DNA from: Heptranchias perlo
Lineage: Eukaryota
DNA: 64,000 bases
Assembly: GCF_035084215.1 (NCBI RefSeq)
Contig: NC_090329.1
Coordinates: 119,660,001-119,724,000, forward strand
Reading direction: 5' to 3'
Under the pieces are notes generated by a model. The model was given only the letters and a program-made list of their open reading frames with translations. It was not told the origin of the DNA and searched no databases. The translations under genes and the position numbers were made by a program. Below are positions 2,823 to 51,156 of the stretch, piece after piece (the stretch's first letter is position 1; every line of letters begins with the position of its first letter).

Positions 2823-4344
2823 CGGCATTTGGTGAACACACTCTCAGGCATGACTTTAGTTCTACCCCCTGTGGTGAGTAACCTGCTCACACCCTACGTT
2901 TACCTGAATGAGATACTAGAGGATACCCAAGACCTGTCGATCAGTACCTCAGGAAAGATTCAGCGCTGGAAGGGCAGGAGGGAGAAAAAAGGGGGGGATA
3001 ATGTCCGGTACAAATGCAGGTATCCCAGGCCTTGCTCATTTGGAGTAATTGCCACTCACTTTAGTTTTAAAAATTGTAAACTATTTGGATGGTTCTTACT
3101 CTGCAATTCAGAACTTGAAGCAAGTTTGTGGTTTATCTTGTTCTTATTGATCATAAATCCTGCTCCTACCAGTGCTGACAGCTCTGATTAAGCCCCACGA
3201 ATGGGCAATTATTTCATCGTTATTAGTGTTCATCACATGACCTGCATCATGATTAAAGGAGTAAAGCTCCATAGTCCAAACAAATCTTCAGATCAGCCAG
3301 TTTGTTTCAGTCCGTTAAGTAATCCTTTGATGTGGTGCAATGGTACACCGATCACACCAAGAAGATGTAACATTACTGAACAGTTTAAACATTACCATGA
3401 AAGTGACTCATACCTCTAGTCTCACATGATGTACTGTCAACATTCACAGAGAATTGAAGGGGCTAGGGCTCTCCCGTTGCTCTCTGCTACACATTAAAGT
3501 CGAGTGCCTAGTTTGACCCATCCCTCTAAATTATAAGCTTTCTAATATCGGTTCATATTGTGGTCCTAGACCCTTCCTCAGAACTGTGCTCTTGGCCCAA
3601 GAGTCTGCATCTAAATCATGAACCTAACTTTTCTCTTTTCAGATGTTATTGGGCCTGTTGTGTACTTCCAGCATTTTGATTTCAGGTTTCCAGTTTTATA
3701 ACCCTCTTACATGGTTTTTGATCTTTCAATCTTTAAGACAAAGTTTAAAAAGACTAACTTACGTGGTTGGGAAATGTGATTGGTAGTTATGGGGGTAAGC
3801 GAGACCAAGATGGTATCATAGAACCATAAAAGTTTACAGTACAGAAGGAGGCCAGTCGGCCCATCGTGTCTGTGCTGGCCCTTTGCTAGAGCAAAATGTA
3901 AATGATCAAATTCACCATTAGATACAATGGCTGGTGCGCTAAGGGAAGGGAGCTTGCCGCCCCTACCCAGTCTGGCCTACAAATGACTCCAGTCCCACAC
4001 TACACGATTGGCTCTTAATGCCTTCCTAAAAGGCCGAGCAAACCACTCAGTTGTACAAACAATCATTACTGAAGATGAAGGCTCACCACCATCGGCTCAG
4101 GGGACGGGTAATAAATATGGCCACGCCAACATCGTCCAAGTTTGGAGAACTAATTAAAAAAAGAACATTTGTAAAGAAAAAAAGGCAGGTGAAGGTTCTG
4201 GTTACAGACCTGTTATCAGAATTAAACATTCTCCTGTCTTTTCTCTTATCAGATCCTGATGGACCTGTTGTTAATTTTTCAGCATCTCCCATTTCAAATA
4301 TTGTTCTTAACTCGTTTTACGATACAAACATGCAGGTTGTGACA

Positions 4345-18849: not shown

Positions 18850-19681
18850 GGTTTCTAGAACTAGGGGGCATAGTCTCAGGATAAGGGGTCGGCCATTTAG
18901 GATTGAGATGAGGAGAAATTTCTTCACTCAGAGGGCTGTAAATCTTTGGAATTCTCTACCCCGGTGGGCTGTGCATGTTCAGTTATTGAGTATATTCAAG
19001 GCTGAGATCGATAGATTTTTGGACTCTAAGGGAATCAAGGGATATGGGGATCGGGCAGGAAAGTGGAGTTGAGGTCGAAGATCAGCCATGATCTAATTGA
19101 ATGGCGGAGCAGGCTCGAAGGGCTGTATGGCCTACTCCTCCTTCTATTTCTTATGTTCTTATGTTGGTTTCAATTAGTTGGAGAGGCCTTAGAAAGAGTG
19201 CAGAGGAGATTTACCAGAATGATACCAGGGATGAGGGACTTCAGTTATGTGGAGAGACTGGAGAAGCGGAGATTGTTGTCCTTACAGTAGAGAAGGTTAA
19301 GGGAAGTTTTAATAGAGGTGTTCAAAATCATGAGGGGTTTTGATAGAGTAAATAAGGAGAAACTGTTTCCAGTGGCAGGGGGGTCAGTGAGCAGAAGCCA
19401 CAGATTTAAGATAATTGGTAAAAGAACCAAAGGGGAAATGAGGTAAATTTTTTTAAAGCAGGGATTTGTTATGATCTGGAATGCACTGCCTGAAAGGGTG
19501 ATGGAAGCAGATTCAGTAGTAACTTTCAATAGAGAATTGGATAAATACTTTGAAAGGAAAACTTTGTAGGGCTATGGGAAAGGAATGGGGGAGTGGGACT
19601 GTACCAGCTCTTTGAAAGAGCCATCTGATTATTCCCACTCTCCTGCTCTTTCCCCATAGCCCTGCAAATATTTCCTTTTCA
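18850..19681 (+). mobile_element. Two tandem CR1 3' fragments (18850-19165, 19180-19620) ending in a fold-back junction to a minus-strand CR1 3' piece (19620-19681)
   Basis: ALERVQRRFTRMIPG etc.; imperfect symmetry around gctctttgaaagagc. Confidence 0.85.
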
Positions 19682-20044
19682 TGATGACCGTTCATCCCAT
19701 CGCACCTTAAGGAGCTTCTCATTCATTCCCATTCCTCGTACTCTTTTAAATTTTTTTGCTTCAAATATTTATCCACTTCCCTTTTAAAAGCCAGCGTGGA
19801 TTCTGCTTCCTCCAGTATTTCACCAGTTGAGCTTTCGCCGTCCAATTTTCAAAAGCAAAAAGAAAACTACAAAAACGATTTTCTGTTATATTTTGATAGC
19901 GAATTGATTTGAGTTTCAATTCCCAAAAGTCACGCTGAAAACGTACGGTGCTCTGGACAAGCCACACCTGGAGTGAAAATAAATGTTGGGGAGGGGAGTA
20001 GCTGTACAGTGGTCAGTACAACATTGTACTCCTGAAATTTGATC

Positions 20045-20298
20045 GTAGTCATGATGTGGAGATGCCGGTGATGGACTGGGGTTGACAATTGTAAACAATT
20101 TTACAACACCAAGTTATAGTCCAGCAATTTTATTTTAAATTCACAAGCTTTCGGAGACTTCCTCCTTCCTCAGGTAAATGTTCAGGATCTCGGAGATCCT
20201 GAACATTTACCTGAGGAAGGAGGAAGTCTCCGAAAGCTTGTGAATTTAAAATAAAATTGCTGGACTATAACTTGGTGTTGTAAAATTGTTTACAATTG
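20045..20298 (-). mobile_element. Penelope-like element terminus with perfect inverted duplication and 12-bp TSD
   Basis: Arms 20086-20191 and 20193-20298 are exact reverse complements. TSD tgaaatttgatc at 20033-20044 and 20297-20308. Tail atgatgtggagatgccggtgatggactggggttga lies outside the palindrome. Confidence 0.85.
20205..20245 (+). ncRNA. Minimal type-I hammerhead ribozyme motif (mirror copy on minus strand at 20139-20179)
   Basis: AUUUAC-CUGAGGA-A-GGAG(GAAGU)CUCC-GAAA-GC-UU-GUGAAU: CUGANGA and GAAA boxes, stem II GGAG/CUCC, stem I AUUUAC/GUGAAU, palindromic AAGCUU stem III. Confidence 0.8.
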
Positions 20299-21194
20299 AA
20301 ATTTGATCAGCAGAGAGGTTAAAGCATCTTGAAACAATAAACCAGGTGTAACACAGGGTTAAATCCACATTAATAATACACACACAGCCCCTTCTTAAAA
20401 TACATTATGTCACTCTCTACACACAATGGGAAACAGAACATCAAAGACGCAGTTTATCTCCCTCTGCAAGGTCATTAGTGTTGGCTGCAGTGAGTCACTA
20501 CACACACTTTACAATCTCTTCCTGTCCTTTGATCTTAGAATCATAGAAAGTTACGGCACAGAAGGAGGTCATTCGGCCCATCGTGTCCGTACCGGCCAAA
20601 AAAGAGCTATCCAGCTTAATCCTACTTTCCAGCACTTGATCTGTAGCCCTGTAGGTTACGGCACTTCAAGTGCACATCCAAGTGCTTTTTCGATGAGCTG
20701 AGGTTTTCTGATCTTCTTATTCCCAATACTCAAAGGAATCTACCACAAAATATAGATTGGAAATCACAGCCCGATGTTACGGCTGTGAAATTTCTTATAC
20801 CTTCTTAAAGTACAGCCTCTAAAATCATTCAATCTAATGACATAAAAACGTGGGTAAAGGCACAATTTCTGCCCTGGATTTTGTTCTGGGGTTGTCCCTT
20901 GTGTGGTACTGTTGTTGAGTTTACTACTTATGGTTGCCTGCTCCATTTGGCAGCAATGTACCATTAGCTTAAGTGCAGGTTGTCTGTATCAAATGAAACC
21001 AAGCCCTGCTGTATAAGGCACAGTGACTAAAACACCAGTCAAGCCAGTTATTAGGGGGCGGGGCTGACTAAAATAAACTGGAATTATCTTCATTGATGTA
21101 TCTATGCTCAAAGTCCCATTTGAACCAGGGTTTCACAGCTCATACTTTAGTTACTCAGAGCTAAAAATGGGTTTGCTGTGATTTACACATATCA

Positions 21195-21395
21195 TCAACA
21201 TCACTAAAAAACAGATTATCTGGTCATTATCACATTGCTGTTTGTGGGACCTTGCTGTGCGCACATTGGCTGCTGTGTTTCCCTACATTACAACTACACA
21301 TGACTACACTTCAAAAAGTATTTTGTTGGCTGTAAAGCGCTTTGAGACATCCTGAAGTTGTGAAAGGCACTATATAAATGCAAGTATTTCTTTCT
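21195..21395 (+). mobile_element. DeuSINE 3' half
   Basis: acagattatctggtcattatcacattgctgtttgtggg...aaaggcactatataaatgcaag. Confidence 0.8.
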
Positions 21396-22379: not shown

Positions 22380-22808
22380 CTACTTGTATTTATAGAGCGC
22401 CTTTCAATGCTTCAGGACATCCCAAAACGCGTTACAGCCAATTAAGTATTTCTGAAGTGTAGTCGCTGTTGTAATGTAGGAAATGCAGCAGCCATTTTGC
22501 GCACAGCACGGTCCCACAAACAGCAATGTGATAATGACCAGATGACCTGTTTTGGTGATATTGGTTGAGGGATAAATATTGGCCAGGACACCAGGGAGAA
22601 CTCCCCTGCTCTTCTTCGAAATAGTGCCATGGAATTGTTTACATCCACCCGAGAGGTCAGACCTGAGAGCCTCGGATTAATGTCTCATCCGAAAGATGAC
22701 ACCTTTAACAGTGCAGAACTCCCTCAGTACGGCACTGAAGTGTCGGTCTAGGTTATGTGCTCAAGTCTCTGGAGTGGGATTTGAACCCATGACCTTCTGA
22801 CTCTGAGA
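22380..22808 (-). mobile_element. DeuSINE, near full length
   Basis: Same tail, Deu core and head order as 49675-50110. Confidence 0.85.
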
Positions 22809-31779: not shown

Positions 31780-31929
31780 CATGTTGAAGGCTCTGCAAAC
31801 ATCCTTCTTTTATAAGCAGGGCCTAGTACCCTGGTCATGTTCATTCTCAGATTCTTACACAGTTCAGCTCTCACTGAAGCTACAGAGAGCTGCATTGGTG
31901 CGATTGTAGGCACTCTGTGATTGGCCCGG

Positions 31930-32688
31930 AGCGCGGGATCAGCAATAAAAGGAGGACTGAGAGAGGAGAAAGAGAGCAGGGCGTGGGATTGGCGATAAAA
32001 GGAGGAGCGAGAGAGGAGAGAGAGAGAGAGCGCGGAGTGTGGGATCAGCGATAAAAGGAGGAGAGAGAGAGGAGAGAGAGAGAGCGCAGAGTGTGGGATC
32101 AGCGATAAAAGGAGGAGAGAGAGAGGAGAGAGAGAGAGCGGAGCGAGGGATCAGGATAAAAGGAGGAGTGAGAGAGGAGAGAGAGAGGAGAGTGGGATCA
32201 GGATAAAAGGAGAGAGAGAGAGGAGAGAGAGAGAGCAGAGCGAGGGATCAGGATAAAAGGAGGAGTGAGAGAGGAGAGAGAGAGGAGAGTGGGATCAGCG
32301 ATAAAAGGAGGAGTGAGAGAGGAGAGAGAGAGAGCAGAGCAAGGGATCAGGATAAAAGGAGGAGTGAGAGAGGAGAGAGAGAGAGCGCGGAGCGAGGGAT
32401 CAGGATAAAAGGAGGAGTGAGAGAGGAGAGAGAGAGAGAGCGGAGCGAGGGATCAGGATAAAAGGAGGAGTGAGAGAGGAGAGAGAGAGCGGAGCGAAGG
32501 ATCAGGATAAAAGGAGGAGAGAGAGAGGAGAGAGAGAGCAGAGCGAGGGATCAGGATAAAAGGAGGAGTGAGAGAGGAGAGAGAGAGAGAGAGCGGAGCG
32601 AAGGATCAGGATAAAAGGAGTGAGCGAGGGGAGAGAGAGAGGGGCGTGGGATCGACGATAAAAGGAGGAGTGAGAGAGGAGAGAGAGG
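31930..32688 (+). repeat. Purine-rich tandem array (~15 units of ~45-56 bp) at the 5' end of a CR1
   Basis: Unit gagcgagggatcaggataaaaggaggagtgagagagg(ag)n. Confidence 0.9.
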
Positions 32689-34560
32689 TGAAAAAACACC
32701 TAAAGTGACGTCAGGACAAGGGAAGGAGCTGATTAGTGAGAGGCTGGTGAGTGTTTTTATTAAGTCTTTAAGTTTACTTTTGTTAAGTTTAGTTAATAAT
32801 ATAATAACAGAGGCATGGCAGCGCACCTCAGTCCCGTCAAATGCACATCCAGTGCCATGTGGGAACTCCAGGACACTTCCCGTGCAGGAAGTATCATCAG
32901 CTGGAGGAGCTCGAGCTCCGGGTTTCAGAGTTTGAGCAACAGCTGGCGTCACCGCAGTGTATCCACGAGGCTGAGAGCTCCGTGGATAGCACGTTTCAGG
33001 AGGTGGTCACCCCGTGGGGTTGAAAACCCCTTTAACAAAAGACATTTGAAGGAAAGGGTTAACTGTACCCCTTTTAAACAAAGAGATTTGAAAACCTGCA
33101 AACACAGTAATGTGGTAAACTGTGTTCTCGCAAATCCTGTTTTTCCCTCACTGACGCTGATGACATTGGAGAAGTGTGAGTTTCGGGATCGAAGACATTG
33201 TACTGTGATAGATATCTAGATTATTAAATAAATAAGCTGGATGGATAATATTGAGTTTAAAGCGTTGTCAGGCTTTCAAAACACAAAGGCATTTGGAAGC
33301 ACAAACTTTTCAACACAGCAGGGGGTAATGTAAGAAAAGGAACAAGGACATACATCAAAGGCTTCGGATTGGGAAAGCAATGATAGGTGTGAAAAAAAGC
33401 CTGGGTCTCTCATTCCTATCTGGTAATCTGTTCAAGAGAACTGGGATTTGTAAAACATCGAATAGTGTTGCACTCAGCATATGGTAAAAACGTGTAAGGA
33501 ATGGATTTGAAGCCACTGCAGCAAACAAAATTGGAGACGTCAGGACCATTAAGAATGTCTGTGTGTGGAACTGTAAGGAGCTATCTCTACATGAAAGGCC
33601 ATAAACAGAGACAGTAAAGGGGCCTTTTACAACCCATCGTTCGAGCACATGGTCTTTTCTACATCAAAGGGTCTCCAGTCACATGATCAAAGCCTAAACT
33701 GTCAATCATTGAGGTTATGTTAATGATTGAGGCATAGCAACAGGGAGCGATTGGACAAAAAGAATGACCCTCCCCAATCCTATGTCCTATTGGTAATAAA
33801 ACAATATAAAAAGAAGACTTTGGGAGAAGAACAGTCTCTTCACCACCCGGCAGTCACAAGGAACGCACACTGCAGTTGAACATCACGCAAGAAGAAGAGG
33901 ACCTCAAGGACTGAAGAGCTGATCAACCTTCAGGCCCAATGAGCAAAATCCTTGGTTTAAAGGTTGTCTGTGTGTTAATGATTTGCCTGATGTGTGTATG
34001 AATTGTTAAGTCATTACATAATAAGGTTGTGAATTATTAAGTGTATAGTGGGATTTTATAAAGGAAAGTCATTTGTATGGTTTGATTTTGCTTCATGAAT
34101 GCTCGTATGAATGATGACATCATTAAATAATTACTTTTGATTAACAAAACTACCGTGAGTGAGGGTGACTTTCTTTGCTTGACTATCCGTCCAGTGTCCA
34201 AGAATAACCCAAAATAAGGAATTCCTTACACCCCGCAGTTTAAGAGAGTGCAGGCAGAGAGGGAATGGGTGAACGCCAGACAGACAAGGAGGACCAGGAA
34301 GGTAGAACAGGAGTCCCCTGAGGGAATCTCACTCTCTGACCAGTATTCAGAACAGAGGGAGAGGGTTCGCCTGGGGAGTGCAGCCGGAGTCAAGTCCATA
34401 GCACCACGGGTAGCTCAGATGTACAGGGGAGGAGGAGAAAGGTCAGGAGAGCGATAGTGATTGAAGATTCTATAATTAGGGGAACAGACAGGTGTTTCTG
34501 TGGCCGCAGACATGATTCCAGAATATTATGTTGCCTCCCTGGTGCCAGGGTCAAGGATAT
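32689..34560 (+). mobile_element. CR1 5' UTR and ORF1 remnant, split by a solo LTR
   Basis: MAAHLSPVKCTSSAMWE...CRKYHQLEELELRVSEFEQQL...DSTFQEVVTP (Zn-finger/leucine-zipper-like) resumes after 34230 and reaches IVIEDSIIRGTDRCFCGRRHDSRILCCLPGARVKDI (SGNH/esterase-like domain of CR1 ORF1). Confidence 0.85.
33015..34230 (+). mobile_element. Solo LTR, 1216 bp, 5-bp TSD
   Basis: TG...CA termini; CCCCG at 33010-33014 and 34231-34235; removal restores contiguous CR1 ORF1. CCAAT 33774, ATTGG 33789, TATAAAA 33805, ATTAAA 34122. Confidence 0.8.
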
Positions 34561-34814
34561 TACAACACCAGGTTATAGTCCAACAATTTTATTTGAAAAT
34601 CACAAGCTTTCAGAGGCTTTCTCCTTCATCAGGTGAATGTGGGAATCCTTGAACGTTTCGCATTTATATTCAGAGAACAATACCTGGTGATTACAGATAA
34701 TCTTTCCAACTGCCTGTTGTCAAGGCAATCAAAGTGTTCAGACAGAGAGGTGTTACCTACAGGACCACCGAATATACAAACGGCCAGAACACAAGACAGA
34801 GAGAGAGGGAGTTT
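34559..34814 (-). mobile_element. Penelope-like element terminal fragment
   Basis: ttacaacacc..ttatagtcc...cacaagcttt matches the 20100-20180 family; the remainder matches 48765-48935. Confidence 0.85.
34598..34638 (-). ncRNA. Minimal type-I hammerhead ribozyme motif
   Basis: Minus strand AUUCAC-CUGAUGA-A-GGAG(AAAGC)CUCU-GAAA-GC-UU-GUGAUU. Confidence 0.75.
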
Positions 34815-40330: not shown

Positions 40331-40503
40331 GTGTTCGGCTTCTATGGATGTATCTGGGATAGGCCTTTGCCTACACAGCAGCAATGGGTGTTGAACATTT
40401 GGTAATATTTCGGTAATTTCACCAGAGGAATAAAATCAGCCTTGCTTGTTGACACTGGGTCAGCTTGGCTCAGATAGTTAGAACCCTCCTCTCTTGGTTA
40501 GAA

Positions 40504-40582
40504 TGATGTGGAGATGCCGGTGATGGACTGGGGTTGACAATTGTAAACAATTTTACAACACCAAGTTATAGTCCAGCAACCT
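40504..40582 (-). mobile_element. 79-bp Penelope-like terminal fragment with 12-bp TSD
   Basis: First 75 bp identical to 20052-20126; tcttggttagaa at 40492-40503 and 40583-40594. Confidence 0.85.
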
Positions 40583-41624
40583 TCTTGGTTAGAAGGTTGT
40601 GAATTTGAGCTTCTTATCAGACTTCTAATATAAGCGAGCACTAGTAATGAACGCTTTACCGTGCTATAAGGGATATTATTAATGAACACATTAGTGCGTA
40701 CTGGGTATATTAAGAATATGCTGTGCAGTACCGGTAATGAATACATTATCCATAGTGACGATTATAGCTCCAGCATAAGTTCGCTCGTTGGCTTGCGTTG
40801 CTATCTCCTGACCTCTTGAACTTTTCATCCTTGCATTATAAAAAAAAATTTTGAAGAAGACCCGAAATAATCCAGATTACTCACAGCTATTGCTTTGAGA
40901 GACAGATATTTAATCCAGAAGGTTCTATATGAGACAAAGCACCCTTCAGGAAACCGGTTTCTGAGTTCATTCCATATCTAGTGGGTTGATATAATAGCTG
41001 CATTTTAAAATAAATCTTACAAAAGCCCGTGTAGAGTAAAATCAACAAACTTCAGCACTTCTGAATGAAAAATGGCTCAGGATACGCTGACCCTCCCGAG
41101 AAAGGTTGAGCTCCAAACACAGATAATAAAACATATCGCAAGAGGGTCAGCAAAACCAGGTTAGCTCTTACTGCAGGTTTGCTGGGTTCGTCTCGTGATG
41201 TTCCTGCATTTTTTTTAGTGGAATGATAGGGATAGAAAAATGGAATTTGTTAAAAAGGCGGATTGGGACGTTTTTTTTAAATGGCAGCCCAGTTCCATCA
41301 ATGTGTCTATTTATAAATATTTAAACACAGATAGACGTTTTTAGCTGTACTATTGAACCGAGAGATTTGTTTTTAGCCAGTCTCTGAAGCATTTCTGTAA
41401 GGCTGCGATGGATTCTTTTAGGGGGCAGTCAAAGAAATACGGTGAGTTTTGACTGACTGTCAGTGTTAATTCACACAAAGCAGAATAAGCGCAGTAATCT
41501 GTTCCAGGGTGGCGCACATGCTCATTGTAATCCTTCTCACTGACAAATGTCAGTGGTCAATATATTCAGCTGAAAAAATGAACTAGAGCAAAACCAAGCT
41601 CTTCGGGCCTATTTACTGTTCAGC

Positions 41625-45469: not shown

Positions 45470-46310
45470 TCCTTCAATTGGGAAGATCGAAGCCATTGTC
45501 TTCGGTCCCCACCGCAAACTCCATTCCCTAGCCACCCACTCCATCCCTCTCCCTGGCCACCGTCTGAGGCTGAACCAGACCTTTTGCAACCTTGGCATCC
45601 TTTTTGTCCCTGAATGAGCTTCCGACCACATATCCGCTCCATCACCAAGACCACCTACTTCCACCTCTGTAACATCGCCCCTCTCTGCCCCTGCCTCAGC
45701 TCATCTGCTGCTGAAACCCTCATCCATGCCTTTGTTACCTCCAGATTGGACTATTCCAATGGTTTCCTGGTCGGCCTTCCATCTTCCACTCTCCATAAAC
45801 TTCAGCTCATCCAAAACTCTGCTGCCCGTATCCTAACTTGCACCAAATCATGTTCTCCCATTACCTCTGTGCTCACTGACCTACATTGGCTCCCGGTCCG
45901 GGAGTGCCTTGATTTTAAAATTCTCATCCTTGTTTTCAAATCCTTCCATGGCCTCGCCCCACCCTATCTCTGTAACCTCCTCCAGCCCGACAACTCTCTG
46001 AGATCTCTGCGCTCCTCCAATTCTGGCCTCTTTCGCATCCCCAATTTTAATCGCTCCACCATTGACGGTCGTGTCTTCAGCTGTCTAGGCCCTAAGCTCT
46101 GGAATTCCCTCCCTAAACCTCTCCGCCTTTCTACCTCTCTATCCTCCTTTAAGTTGTTCCTTAAAACCTACCTCTTTGACCAAGTTTTTGGTCACCTGTC
46201 CTAATATCTCCTTATGTGGCTTGGTGTCAAATTTTGTTTGATAACACTCCTGTGAAGTGCCTTGGGATGTTTTACTATGTTAAAGGGGCTATATAAATGC
46301 AAGGTGTTTT
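45470..46310 (+). mobile_element. L2 LINE 3' 0.84 kb
   Basis: ORF 45614-46204 ETLIHAFVTSRLDYSN...QLIQNSAARIL...LHWLPV...KLWNSLP. Confidence 0.95.
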
Positions 46311-47402
46311 TGAAATGAACTGGATCCAGGACCCCACACTTGCTCATTGGTAATTGAAATGAACTGGATCCAGGACCCCACACTTGCTCATTGGTAATTG
46401 AAATGAACTGGATCCAAGACCCCACACTTGCTCATTGGTAATTGAAATGAACTGGATCCAGGACCCCACACTTGCTCATCGCTAATTGAAATGAACTGGA
46501 TCCAAGACCCCACACTTGCTCATTGGTAATTGATATGAACTGGATCCAAGACCCCACACTTGCTCATTGGTAATTGATATGAACTGGATCCAAGACCCCA
46601 CACTTGCTCATTGGTAATTGATATGAACTGGATCCAAGACCCCACACTTGCTCATTGGTAATTGATATGAACTGGATCCAAGACCCCACACTTGCTCATT
46701 GGTAATTGATATGAACTGGATCCAAGACCCCACACTTGCTCATTGGTAATTGAAATGAACTGGATCCAGGACCGCACACTTGCTCATTGGTAATTGATAT
46801 GAACTGGATCCAAGACCCCACACTTGCTCATTGGTAATTGAAATGAACTGGATCCAGGAACCCACACTTGCTCATTGGTAATTGATATGAACTGGATCCA
46901 AGACCCCACACTTGCTCATTGGTAATTGATATGAACTGGATCCAAGACCCCACACTTGCTCATTGGTAATTGATATGAACTGGATCCAAGACCCCACACT
47001 TGCTCATCGCTAATTGAAATGAACTGGATCCAAGACCCCACACTTGCTCATCGCTAATTGAAATGAACTGGATCCAGGACTGCACACTTGCTCATCGCTA
47101 ATTGAAATGAACTGGATCCAGGACTGCACACTTGCTCATCGCTAATTGAAATGAACTGGATCCAGGACTGCACACTTGCTCATCGCTAATTGAAATGAAC
47201 TGGATCCAAGACCCCACACTTGCTCATCGCTAATTGAAATGAACTGGATCCAAGACCCCAAACTTGCTCATCGCTAATTGAAATGAACTGGATCCAAGAC
47301 CCCACACTTGCTCATCGCTAATTGAAATGAACTGGATCCAAGACCCCACACTTGCTCATCGCTAATTGATATGAACTGGATCCAAGACCCCACACTTGCT
47401 CA
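46311..47402. repeat. 44-bp minisatellite, ~25 units
   Basis: Unit tga(a/t)atgaactggatcca(a/g)gaccccacacttgctcat(tgg/cgc)taat. Confidence 0.97.
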
Positions 47403-47889: not shown

Positions 47890-49600
47890 CCAGAAGACTT
47901 GAATATTGCAAAAGTCACACCCTTGTTCAAAAAAGGAGAGAGGGATAAACCTGACAATTACAGGCCAATCAGTCTAATGTTGGTGGGGAAACTTTTAGAG
48001 ACAATAATTGGGGACAAAATTAATTGGCACTTGGAAAATATGAGCTAATAAATGAAAGTCAGCACTGATTTGTTAAAGGAAAATCATGTTTGACTAACTT
48101 GATTGAGTTCTCTGATGAAGTAACGGTGAGGGTTGATGAGGGTAGTACAGTTGATGTTGTGTATATGGACTTTCAAAATGCATTTGATAAAGTACCACAT
48201 AATAGACTTGTTAGCAAAATTAAAGCCCATGGGATTAAAAGGACATTGCAGCGTGGATACAAAATTGGCTAAGGGACAGAAAGCAGAGAGTAGTGGTGAA
48301 TGGTTGTTTTTCAGATTGGAGGGAAGTATACAGTGGTGTTCCCCAGGGGTCAGTATTAGGACCACTGCTCTTTTTGATATATATTAATGACCTGGACACG
48401 GGTATAGAGGGTATAATTTCAAAATTTGCAGATGACACGAGACTCGAAATGTAGTAAACAATGTGGAGGATAGTAACAGATTTCAGGAGAACATAGACAG
48501 ACTGGTGAAATGGGCAGATGAAGTGATACATTTTGGTAGGAAGAATGAGGACAGGCAATATAAACTAAATGGTATAATTTTAAAGGGGGTGCAGGAACAG
48601 AGAGACCTGGGAGTGCACCTACATAAATCTTTGAAGGTGGCAGGACAAGTTGAGAAGGCTGTTAAAACATATGGGATCTTGGGTTTTATTAATACAGGTA
48701 GAGTACAAAAACAAGGAAGTTATGCTAAACCTTTATAATTGTAAACAATTTTACAACACCAATGTGGAAATGAAATCCTCGAACCTTTCGCATTTATAAA
48801 TCACAGAACAATACCTGGTGATTACAGATAGTCTTTCCAACTGCCCGTTGCCAAGGCAATCACTGTGTGCAGACAGAGAGGTGTTACCTACAGGGCCACC
48901 GAATATACAAACAACCAAAAAAAAACAGAGAGAGAGGCAGAAACATCCGGAAGGAAGAGAAAGACAGCAAATGACCCATTATATTAAAAACAGATAACTT
49001 TTGTTCACTGGTGGGGTTACGTGTAGCGTGACCCACCAACTAAACCTTTATAAAACGCTGGTCAGGCCTCAGCTGGAGTATTGTGCCCAATTCTGGGCAC
49101 CACACTTTATGGAGGATATCAAGGCCTTAGAGAGGGTGCAGAAGAGGTTTATTAGAATGGCACCAGAGATGAGGGACTTCAGTTACATGGATAGTTTGGA
49201 GAAGCTGGGGTTATTCTCCTTAGAACAGAGGAGATTCGATAGAGGTGTTCAAAATCATGAACGGTTTTAATAGAGTAAATAAGGAGAAACTGTTTCCAGT
49301 GGCAGAGGGGTCAGTAACCAGAGGACACAGATTTAAGGTGATTGGCAAAAGAAGCAGAGATGACATGAGGGAACATTTTTACGCAGTGAATTGTAATGAT
49401 CTGGAATGTACTGCCTGAAAGGTGATGGAAGCAGATTCAATAGTAACTTTCAAAAGGGAATTGGATAAATATTTGAAGGGAAAAAATTTACAGGGCTATG
49501 AGGAAAGGGACTAATTGGATAACTCTTTTAAAGAGCCGGACAGGCACGATGGACTGAATGGTCGCCTTCTGTGGTGTACCTACTTTGATATTATGATCTG
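47890..49600 (+). mobile_element. CR1 ORF2 RT to 3' tail, interrupted by a PLE insert
   Basis: [40 protein letters not shown]. Confidence 0.95.
48739..49039 (-). mobile_element. Penelope-like terminal fragment lacking the hammerhead, 14-bp TSD
   Basis: ctaaacctttataa at 48725-48738 and 49040-49053; homologous to 34559-34812 and 20086-20112. Confidence 0.85.
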
Positions 49601-50732: not shown

Positions 50733-51156
50733 GTGCTCCGTACATTACCCGGTGCTCGGTACATTACCCGGTGCTCGGTACATTACCCGGTGCTCCGTAC
50801 ATTACCCGGTGCTCGGTACATTACCCGGTGCTCGGTACATTACCCGGTGCTCCGTACATTACCCGGTGCTCGGTACATTACCCGGTGCTCCGTACATTAC
50901 CCGGTGCTCCGTACATTACCCGGTGCTCGGTACATTACCCGGTGCTCGGTACATTACCCGGTGCTCGGTACATTACCCGGTACTCCGTACATTACCCGGT
51001 GCTCCGTTCATTACCCGGTGCTCGGTACATTACCCGGTGCTCGGTACATTACCCGGTGCTCGGTACATTACCCGGTGCTCCGTACATTACCCGGTGCTCC
51101 GTACATTACCCGGTGCTCCGTACATTACCCGGTGCTCCGTACATTACCCGGTGCTC
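50733..51156. repeat. 19-bp CpG-rich minisatellite, ~22 units
   Basis: Unit gtgctc(c/g)gtacattacccg. Confidence 0.97.

Follow-up and report, generated by a model that had tools for sequence, protein, structure and literature searches.

How does a perfect palindrome with a ribozyme-like motif on each strand come to lie between the two copies of a target-site duplication (TSD), and to what kind of element does it belong? These questions are raised by a short insertion in a 64,000-nt stretch of Heptranchias perlo DNA, which is called the window here. Its structure, its sequence motifs, its related copies and its junctions are considered in turn.

Palindrome and target-site duplication

The palindrome described in the first-pass annotation, with arms of 106 bp and a 1-nt loop, is confirmed. 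The arms at 20086–20191 and 20193–20298 are exact reverse complements of each other, 106 nt each, and the loop is the single base G20192. The runner-up perfect palindrome in the 64-kb window has arms of only 14 nt. The reported 12-bp TSD is present as well: TGAAATTTGATC flanks the insert on both sides, at 20033–20044 and 20297–20308 (both plus strand). Because the first 2 nt of the right copy overlap the outer end of the right arm, the TSD is 10–12 bp long and the insert 252–254 nt. With tandem arrays masked, 5000 random pairs of positions were drawn in this geometry, and 0 of them had a direct repeat of at least 10 nt. Without masking, 55 of the 5000 pairs had a repeat of at least 12 nt, and masking removed all of them.

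The left TSD copy, on what is probably the first-strand priming side, is followed by a one-sided 3′ tail at 20045–20085 (minus strand). The left arm is a 5′-truncated pLTR with its sense on the minus strand, and the right arm is an inverted, tail-less, 5′-truncated pLTR with its sense on the plus strand. The two arms meet at the head-to-head junction 20192. The tail had been given as ~35 nt. This length is right when it is counted from the common end of the family at 20051, but at this locus the tail has 41 nt. The insertion had also been regarded as very recent, which agrees with the 100% identity of the arms and with a sibling copy that is 100% identical over 77 nt.

Contigs of four runs (among 24) were mapped on the left flank and one arm. 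Palindromes are a known class of artefact, and an assembly or library artefact (a fold-back chimera) has to be considered here. Such an origin is nevertheless very improbable, because the outer end of the right arm, at the tail-less start of the family, repeats the left target site exactly (0 of 5000 random pairs do so), and the left junction is found in contigs at flank depth. That this junction is real is shown by a single contig of X1, a run that may be the source sample, which covers 19820–20071 with 0 differences.

Minimal hammerhead motifs on both strands

One hammerhead per strand had been proposed, and a minimal type-I motif does occur once on each strand. The plus copy lies at 20205–20245, with a predicted cut after CUU at 20239. 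Its stem I consists of 20205–20210 and 20240–20245 (AUUUAC/GUGAAU), and its core of CUGAGGA (20211–20217), an extra A (20218), stem II (GGAG/CUCC) and GAAA (20232–20235), followed by GCUU. The minus copy at 20139–20179 is the mirror of the plus copy, has its predicted cut after 20145 and fits the min-HHR of PMC4209133. Inspection by eye and a regular expression, rather than a covariance model, served to match the motifs to the description in that paper. In the window the core is found 2 times, versus 0 times in 60 simulated windows.

The predicted pairing probability of stem I is moderate (0.33–0.58), and the motif folds no better than its shuffles (z = −0.57), which is usual for a motif so small. 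The hammerhead call therefore rests on the core pattern. A search with hammerhead models, suggested in the first-pass annotation as a check, did not support the call: on the window, Rfam gave 0 matches at gathering scores, and at E<=10 it returned no hammerhead model, just sub-threshold, hairpin-driven matches of the miRNA type. Since miRNA models match at E 1e-9 to 1e-10 and long inverted repeats lie within a TSD, a microRNA precursor, or a MITE or fold-back DNA transposon, has to be weighed. This explanation is largely refuted and hardly credible. The miRNA matches score far below the gathering thresholds and are due to nothing but the hairpin. The 41-nt one-sided tail shows that the inverted repeats are not terminal. 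Each sibling has a single arm, and its truncation varies and affects just one end; a second long arm is seen in 0 of 3.

PMC4209133 characterizes min-HHRs by an extra base at 9/10.1 and a palindromic 15.2–16.2, and it reports dual min-HHRs on opposite strands, 100–700 bp apart. Like these metazoan PLE motifs, the motif here has a CUGANGA core, an extra base between 9 and 10.1, G10.1-C11.1, GAAA and a palindromic 15.2–16.2, lacks a stable helix III and forms an opposite-strand pair. This predicted hammerhead differs from the motifs of PMC4209133 in that N7 is G and the cut triplet is CUU; its helix II has 4 bp versus 7–8 bp in the Schistosoma motifs.

The activity of min-HHRs is described as low in PMC4209133, even for dimers, and the idea of hammerhead dimers is summed up in PMC6765202. 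In our computation, the predicted energy of the target dimeric fold was −14.3 kcal/mol versus −22.3 kcal/mol for the best dimer, and each monomer was predicted at −8.4 kcal/mol. An in-cis hammerhead dimer at the locus was ruled out, as each strand has one sense copy.

A probable truncated Penelope-like element

The insert is very probably a heavily 5′-truncated, very young insertion of an EN+ Penelope-like element (PLE), the palindrome having formed at insertion. This degree of confidence applies to identity and formation at insertion jointly and excludes the joining step. A PLE pLTR with a minimal hammerhead and a tail had already been suggested, and the layout fits published PLE insertions. 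The EN+ PLE features found are a minimal hammerhead in a pLTR, a tail of 35–41 nt at one end (published 30–40 nt), variable 5′ truncation, an adjacent inverted 5′-truncated copy and a TSD. According to PMC3846280, the pLTRs of a typical Penelope insert have an inverted pLTR beside them; one of these bears a tail of 31 bp, the TSD is 8–10 bp long, and palindromes are frequent at the head-to-head junction. PMC8557442 describes an inverted 5′-truncated copy with a tail of 30–40 bp on one side and calls the mechanism of formation unsettled, and PMC8969392 gives the same inverted-pLTR scheme.

The insert is like the EN+ PLE inserts Pen2a/Pen2 of Adineta vaga (PMC3846280) and Penelope of D. virilis (PMC2377424), and like the scheme given for PLEs in general in PMC8557442, in having an inverted 5′-truncated copy placed head-to-head, a tail of 30–40 nt on one side only, a TSD of ~10 bp and a junction palindrome. 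In contrast to them, no ORF is left, and both arms are cut in the first pLTR, 1 nt apart, so that the whole insert is one palindrome. The junction palindromes described in the published inserts are 15–38 bp long and lie within longer inserts. Poseidon of Anolis (PAc, PMC11167929) also has two end points ~35 nt apart which bound the tail, as well as a hammerhead in the pLTR. The hammerhead and tail of PAc overlap the ORF start, whereas here the first ATG is at the end of the tail. Inverted products are not treated in the available text of PMC11167929. The locus is a known PLE architecture, and its new point is that both pieces are cut just upstream of the hammerhead. No direct description of shark PLE hammerheads was found in the literature covered, which excludes subscription papers and Repbase/Dfam entries.

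The link to an element with RT and GIY-YIG is putative and is drawn from the anatomy. In the window, Pfam gave 0 GIY-YIG matches (42 + 146 frames). We infer that the ATG at 20052–20050 (minus strand) is the start of the ORF of the element. The sense strand of a second copy in the window (48737) ends in ..SRYT-stop, which we take to resemble PLE C-termini.

Sibling copies in the window

The window contains three other copies of the family. The sibling at 40503–40579 (minus strand) consists of the tail and 42 nt, is the one that is 100% identical to the insert, has no hammerhead and no long inverted arm, and is flanked by a 12-bp TSD at 40492/40583. The copy at 48737–49039 (minus strand) is tail-less, lies inside a LINE-like repeat and has a 14-bp TSD at 48725/49040, an internal deletion and a short fold-back at its 5′ junction. 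The deletion, at 48762–48763, takes out the hammerhead region and leaves the TSD intact. The copy at 34557–34811 (minus strand) is older (88% identical over 84 nt) and has no inverted arm, and no TSD was found around it. TSDs of 12, 12 and 14 bp are present in three of the four window copies. A long inverted arm is seen in 0 of the 3 other copies, that is, in 1 of 4 in all. The four copies (20045, 34557, 40503 and 48737) are in one orientation, with the sense on the minus strand, which may be chance (n = 4).

The ends of these copies coincide. Copy 40503 starts at the common tail end of the family (20049–20052), and copy 48737 starts within 2–3 nt of the start of the right arm, whose outer end it matches; both of the latter overlap their own TSD by 2 nt. 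As the tail-bearing end occurs in two copies (20045 and 40503) and the tail-less end in two others (the right arm and 48737), both end points are properties of the family.

Abundance and boundaries of the family

The family is present in high copy, and 16,561 of the 15.4 million contigs of run X1 match one arm and the flank. The summed depth in X1 is 13 on the flank versus 1e5–5e6 on the element, a depth that is not a copy number. At least 212 X1 contigs exit the element at 20049–20052 into unrelated flanks (agreement 0.36–0.37), which locates the tail end. Runs X6 and X12, which are from other organisms, contain related elements and do not cover the unique flank; contigs drop rare alleles. 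Pattern scans of metagenome contigs and viral contigs gave 0 matches.

Beyond 20191, the sequence of the family starts with CTCGAAG. This was read from a loose end in run X19 (8 contigs, agreement 0.76), which is a single mixed consensus from a run guessed to be RNA, and the continuation resembles CCTCGAAC in copy 48737. Longer family copies exist, and 20191/2 is thus not the absolute end of the element. The depth falls over 20171–20192, which is no test of an RNA end because edge effects are mixed with subfamily divergence. In run X12, a loose end at 20175 (10 contigs, agreement 0.68, a consensus too mixed to count) includes the core of a sense hammerhead and may mark a further inverted joint. 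A loose end behind 20157 in X1 comes from a related subfamily and has a hairpin-like joint in hammerhead stem II with a 7-nt loop; it is formed by 7 contigs, mostly with only 9 loose letters, and may be one locus. Among the joints listed for contigs on the left flank and one arm, none changes strand. Four go-back joints are listed, their strand not being stated, and none of them is at 20191/2.

These data bear on the proposal of the first-pass annotation that the insert may be a non-autonomous, retrozyme-like unit. Such an independent palindromic mini-element would be copied in full from the hairpin RNA of a master copy. The complete TSD and the perfect arms would agree with this proposal, non-autonomous PLE derivatives exist (bioRxiv 10.64898/2026.07.22.740005; PMC8557442), and 52 X1 contigs extend past the ends of the mapped stretch. 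However, the layout is that of a documented inverted-pLTR truncated PLE insertion, none of the three window siblings is two-armed, and the family sequence runs past the centre. The four go-back joints and the hairpin-like loose end at 20157 lie elsewhere than 20191/2, and there is no tandem array. Within the hairpin RNA (predicted −187 kcal/mol), the hammerheads would be hidden, as would most of the sequence beside the RT start sites. The proposal is accordingly improbable. A fold-back point that differs in every genomic copy had been named as its refutation. This test is weak, since a fixed RNA 5′ end would by itself make the fold-back point recur, whether or not there is a mini-element.

Retrozymes are described as head-to-tail tandems with mostly canonical type-I hammerheads (PMC7229834; bioRxiv 10.64898/2026.07.22.740005). 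The insert is like the non-LTR retrozymes of these two sources in being non-coding and PLE-related, in its type-I hammerhead and size of ~250 nt, and in its long TSD. Unlike them, it has no head-to-tail tandem, and its hammerhead is minimal without helix III, not canonical with contacts between loop 1 and loop 2. Because there is one sense hammerhead per strand, no monomer could be cut out of the locus and circularised.

Joining of the two arms

The truncated PLE insertion leaves the question of how the two arms were joined. The RT/endonuclease of an autonomous PLE elsewhere would have built the palindrome during insertion. The plus-strand nick would have served as primer at the tail end and the minus-strand nick at the tail-less site. 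Both cDNAs would then have been extended almost to a common RNA 5′ end, with a difference of 1 nt. In the last step, the 3′ end of one cDNA would have switched, with no homology, to the other cDNA and used it as template. The resulting insert would have no function of its own, and the hammerheads would be passengers.

Several observations bear on this scheme. The arms start at different points, the left one at the tail end and the right one at the tail-less site, and each is joined to one copy of the TSD. At the centre (20192), the minus-strand base C agrees with the family sequence, unlike the plus-strand base G, and microhomology is absent. Stem I lies 13 nt downstream of the centre, and the predicted cut site is ~47 nt away. 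The tail-less start is common to the right arm and copy 48737, and there is no self-complementarity at the centre, which suggests that the palindrome was probably built at insertion and not copied from a mini-element. PMC11167929 describes a PLE protein, predicted to be a dimer, that cuts the two target strands and extends each of them in vitro; reverse transcription begins at two internal sites bounding the tail, and hammerhead cleavage is not needed in vitro. The D. virilis transcript starts inside the pLTR (PMC2377424), and a transcript start of this type would supply a defined RNA 5′ end.

The likeliest route of joining is therefore that the two target nicks primed synthesis at two different internal start sites and that a blunt head-to-head jump followed; we infer it with about even confidence. 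A more specific version is that the joint is the direct footprint of twin target priming, with a PLE dimer, one RNA whose 5′ end lies just upstream of the hammerhead, and a blunt template jump; this version is tentative and less likely than not. In the literature covered, which excludes subscription papers, self-priming and endonuclease resolution have been published, and no model of twin priming with a blunt jump was found.

Two other candidates for the joint were tried and rejected. A fold-back at the hammerhead cut site was ruled out by the distance of ~47 nt from the centre, and a native palindrome at the centre as the annealing point was ruled out by the X19 loose end and two older copies.

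Fold-backs at the 5′ junctions of sibling copies

The same PLE insertion could also have been completed by snap-back. The tail-primed cDNA would have folded back, or would have been capped by a hairpin, and would have been extended along itself by the PLE RT or a repair polymerase. The copy-back would then have been cut or have stopped at the tail boundary and been joined to the second target end. Self-priming is how PMC3846280 reads the junction palindromes, and for the tail PMC8557442 suggests resolution by an endonuclease. Snap-back would also account for the equal lengths of the arms without a fixed RNA end.

Both of the other TSD-flanked copies, 40503 and 48737, have short templated fold-backs at the 5′ junction, so that snap-back synthesis seems to occur in the family. 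At the junction of copy 40503 (40570–40612), the few inserted bases are an inverted copy of the adjacent flank. They form a hairpin with a 9-bp perfect stem and a 5-nt loop, which was reached by 11 of 5000 random windows. This junction looks as if the target 3′ end had snapped back and had then annealed to the cDNA over 3 nt. Copy 48737 ends at its junction (49009–49039) in a 7-nt inverted copy of its own sequence, with an imperfect stem of ~12 bp and a 5-nt loop, and resembles cDNA self-priming. The folding energies of the two fold-backs are −8.8 and −8.2 kcal/mol; among 3000 random windows, −8.5 kcal/mol is reached by 59 and −8 kcal/mol by 91.

In contrast, the palindrome itself is less easily explained by snap-back. 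Past the centre, the sequence of the family is not self-complementary, and a hairpin primer with a 1-nt loop would be hard to form; beyond 20191 it gives no such primer unless 2–3 untemplated bases chanced to pair. The copy would moreover need to stop in the same 2–3 nt where the independent copy 48737 was primed. In vitro, extension was seen on both strands of the target (PMC11167929), and the junction hairpins of the siblings were spotted after the fact, with n = 2. Snap-back is thus a serious competitor, to which we assign roughly one chance in three. Counting the junctions of young palindromic stubs could separate it from twin priming.

RNA fold and surroundings of the locus

It had been proposed that transcription would sequester the ribozyme in a dsRNA hairpin, and the modelled folds bear this out. 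In read-through RNA of either strand, the predicted pairing probability of the hammerhead helices drops from 0.33–0.97 to 0.000, as the antisense arm is made first. The predicted folding energy of the hairpin RNA is about −187 kcal/mol. Run X19 (guessed to be RNA) contains contigs of the family and none on the flank, which is evidence neither for nor against transcription of the locus. The locus is expected to be a neutral passenger insertion. It is of little importance by itself, being one among very many stubs of an active retroelement family. If palindromic stubs occur often, they would readily supply perfect 100-bp hairpin RNA, provided they are read through.

By Pfam, no host gene or exon was found near the site (42 of 42 frames of at least 120 aa, 145 of 184 shorter unmasked frames and one read-through frame). 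The same scan gave only RVT_1 fragments and repeat-driven or sub-threshold matches. A short frame at 3001–3093 (plus strand) has one internal stop and no Pfam match at E<=0.001. We take it to resemble an F-box motif, possibly as a pseudo-exon or by chance.

At least 45% of the window is internally repeated, and its repeats look like those of a cartilaginous fish. An imperfect 46-nt inverted repeat (80%) at 19553–19678, 350 nt to the left of the insertion, is formed by two LINE-like 3′ ends. Inverted SINE-like repeats at 21208–21386 and 22381–22553, ~1 kb apart and 79–91% complementary, lie on either side of an RT fragment. Minisatellite arrays occupy 46310–47402, 50733–51156 and 31927–32688, with periods of 44, 19 and ~50, respectively.
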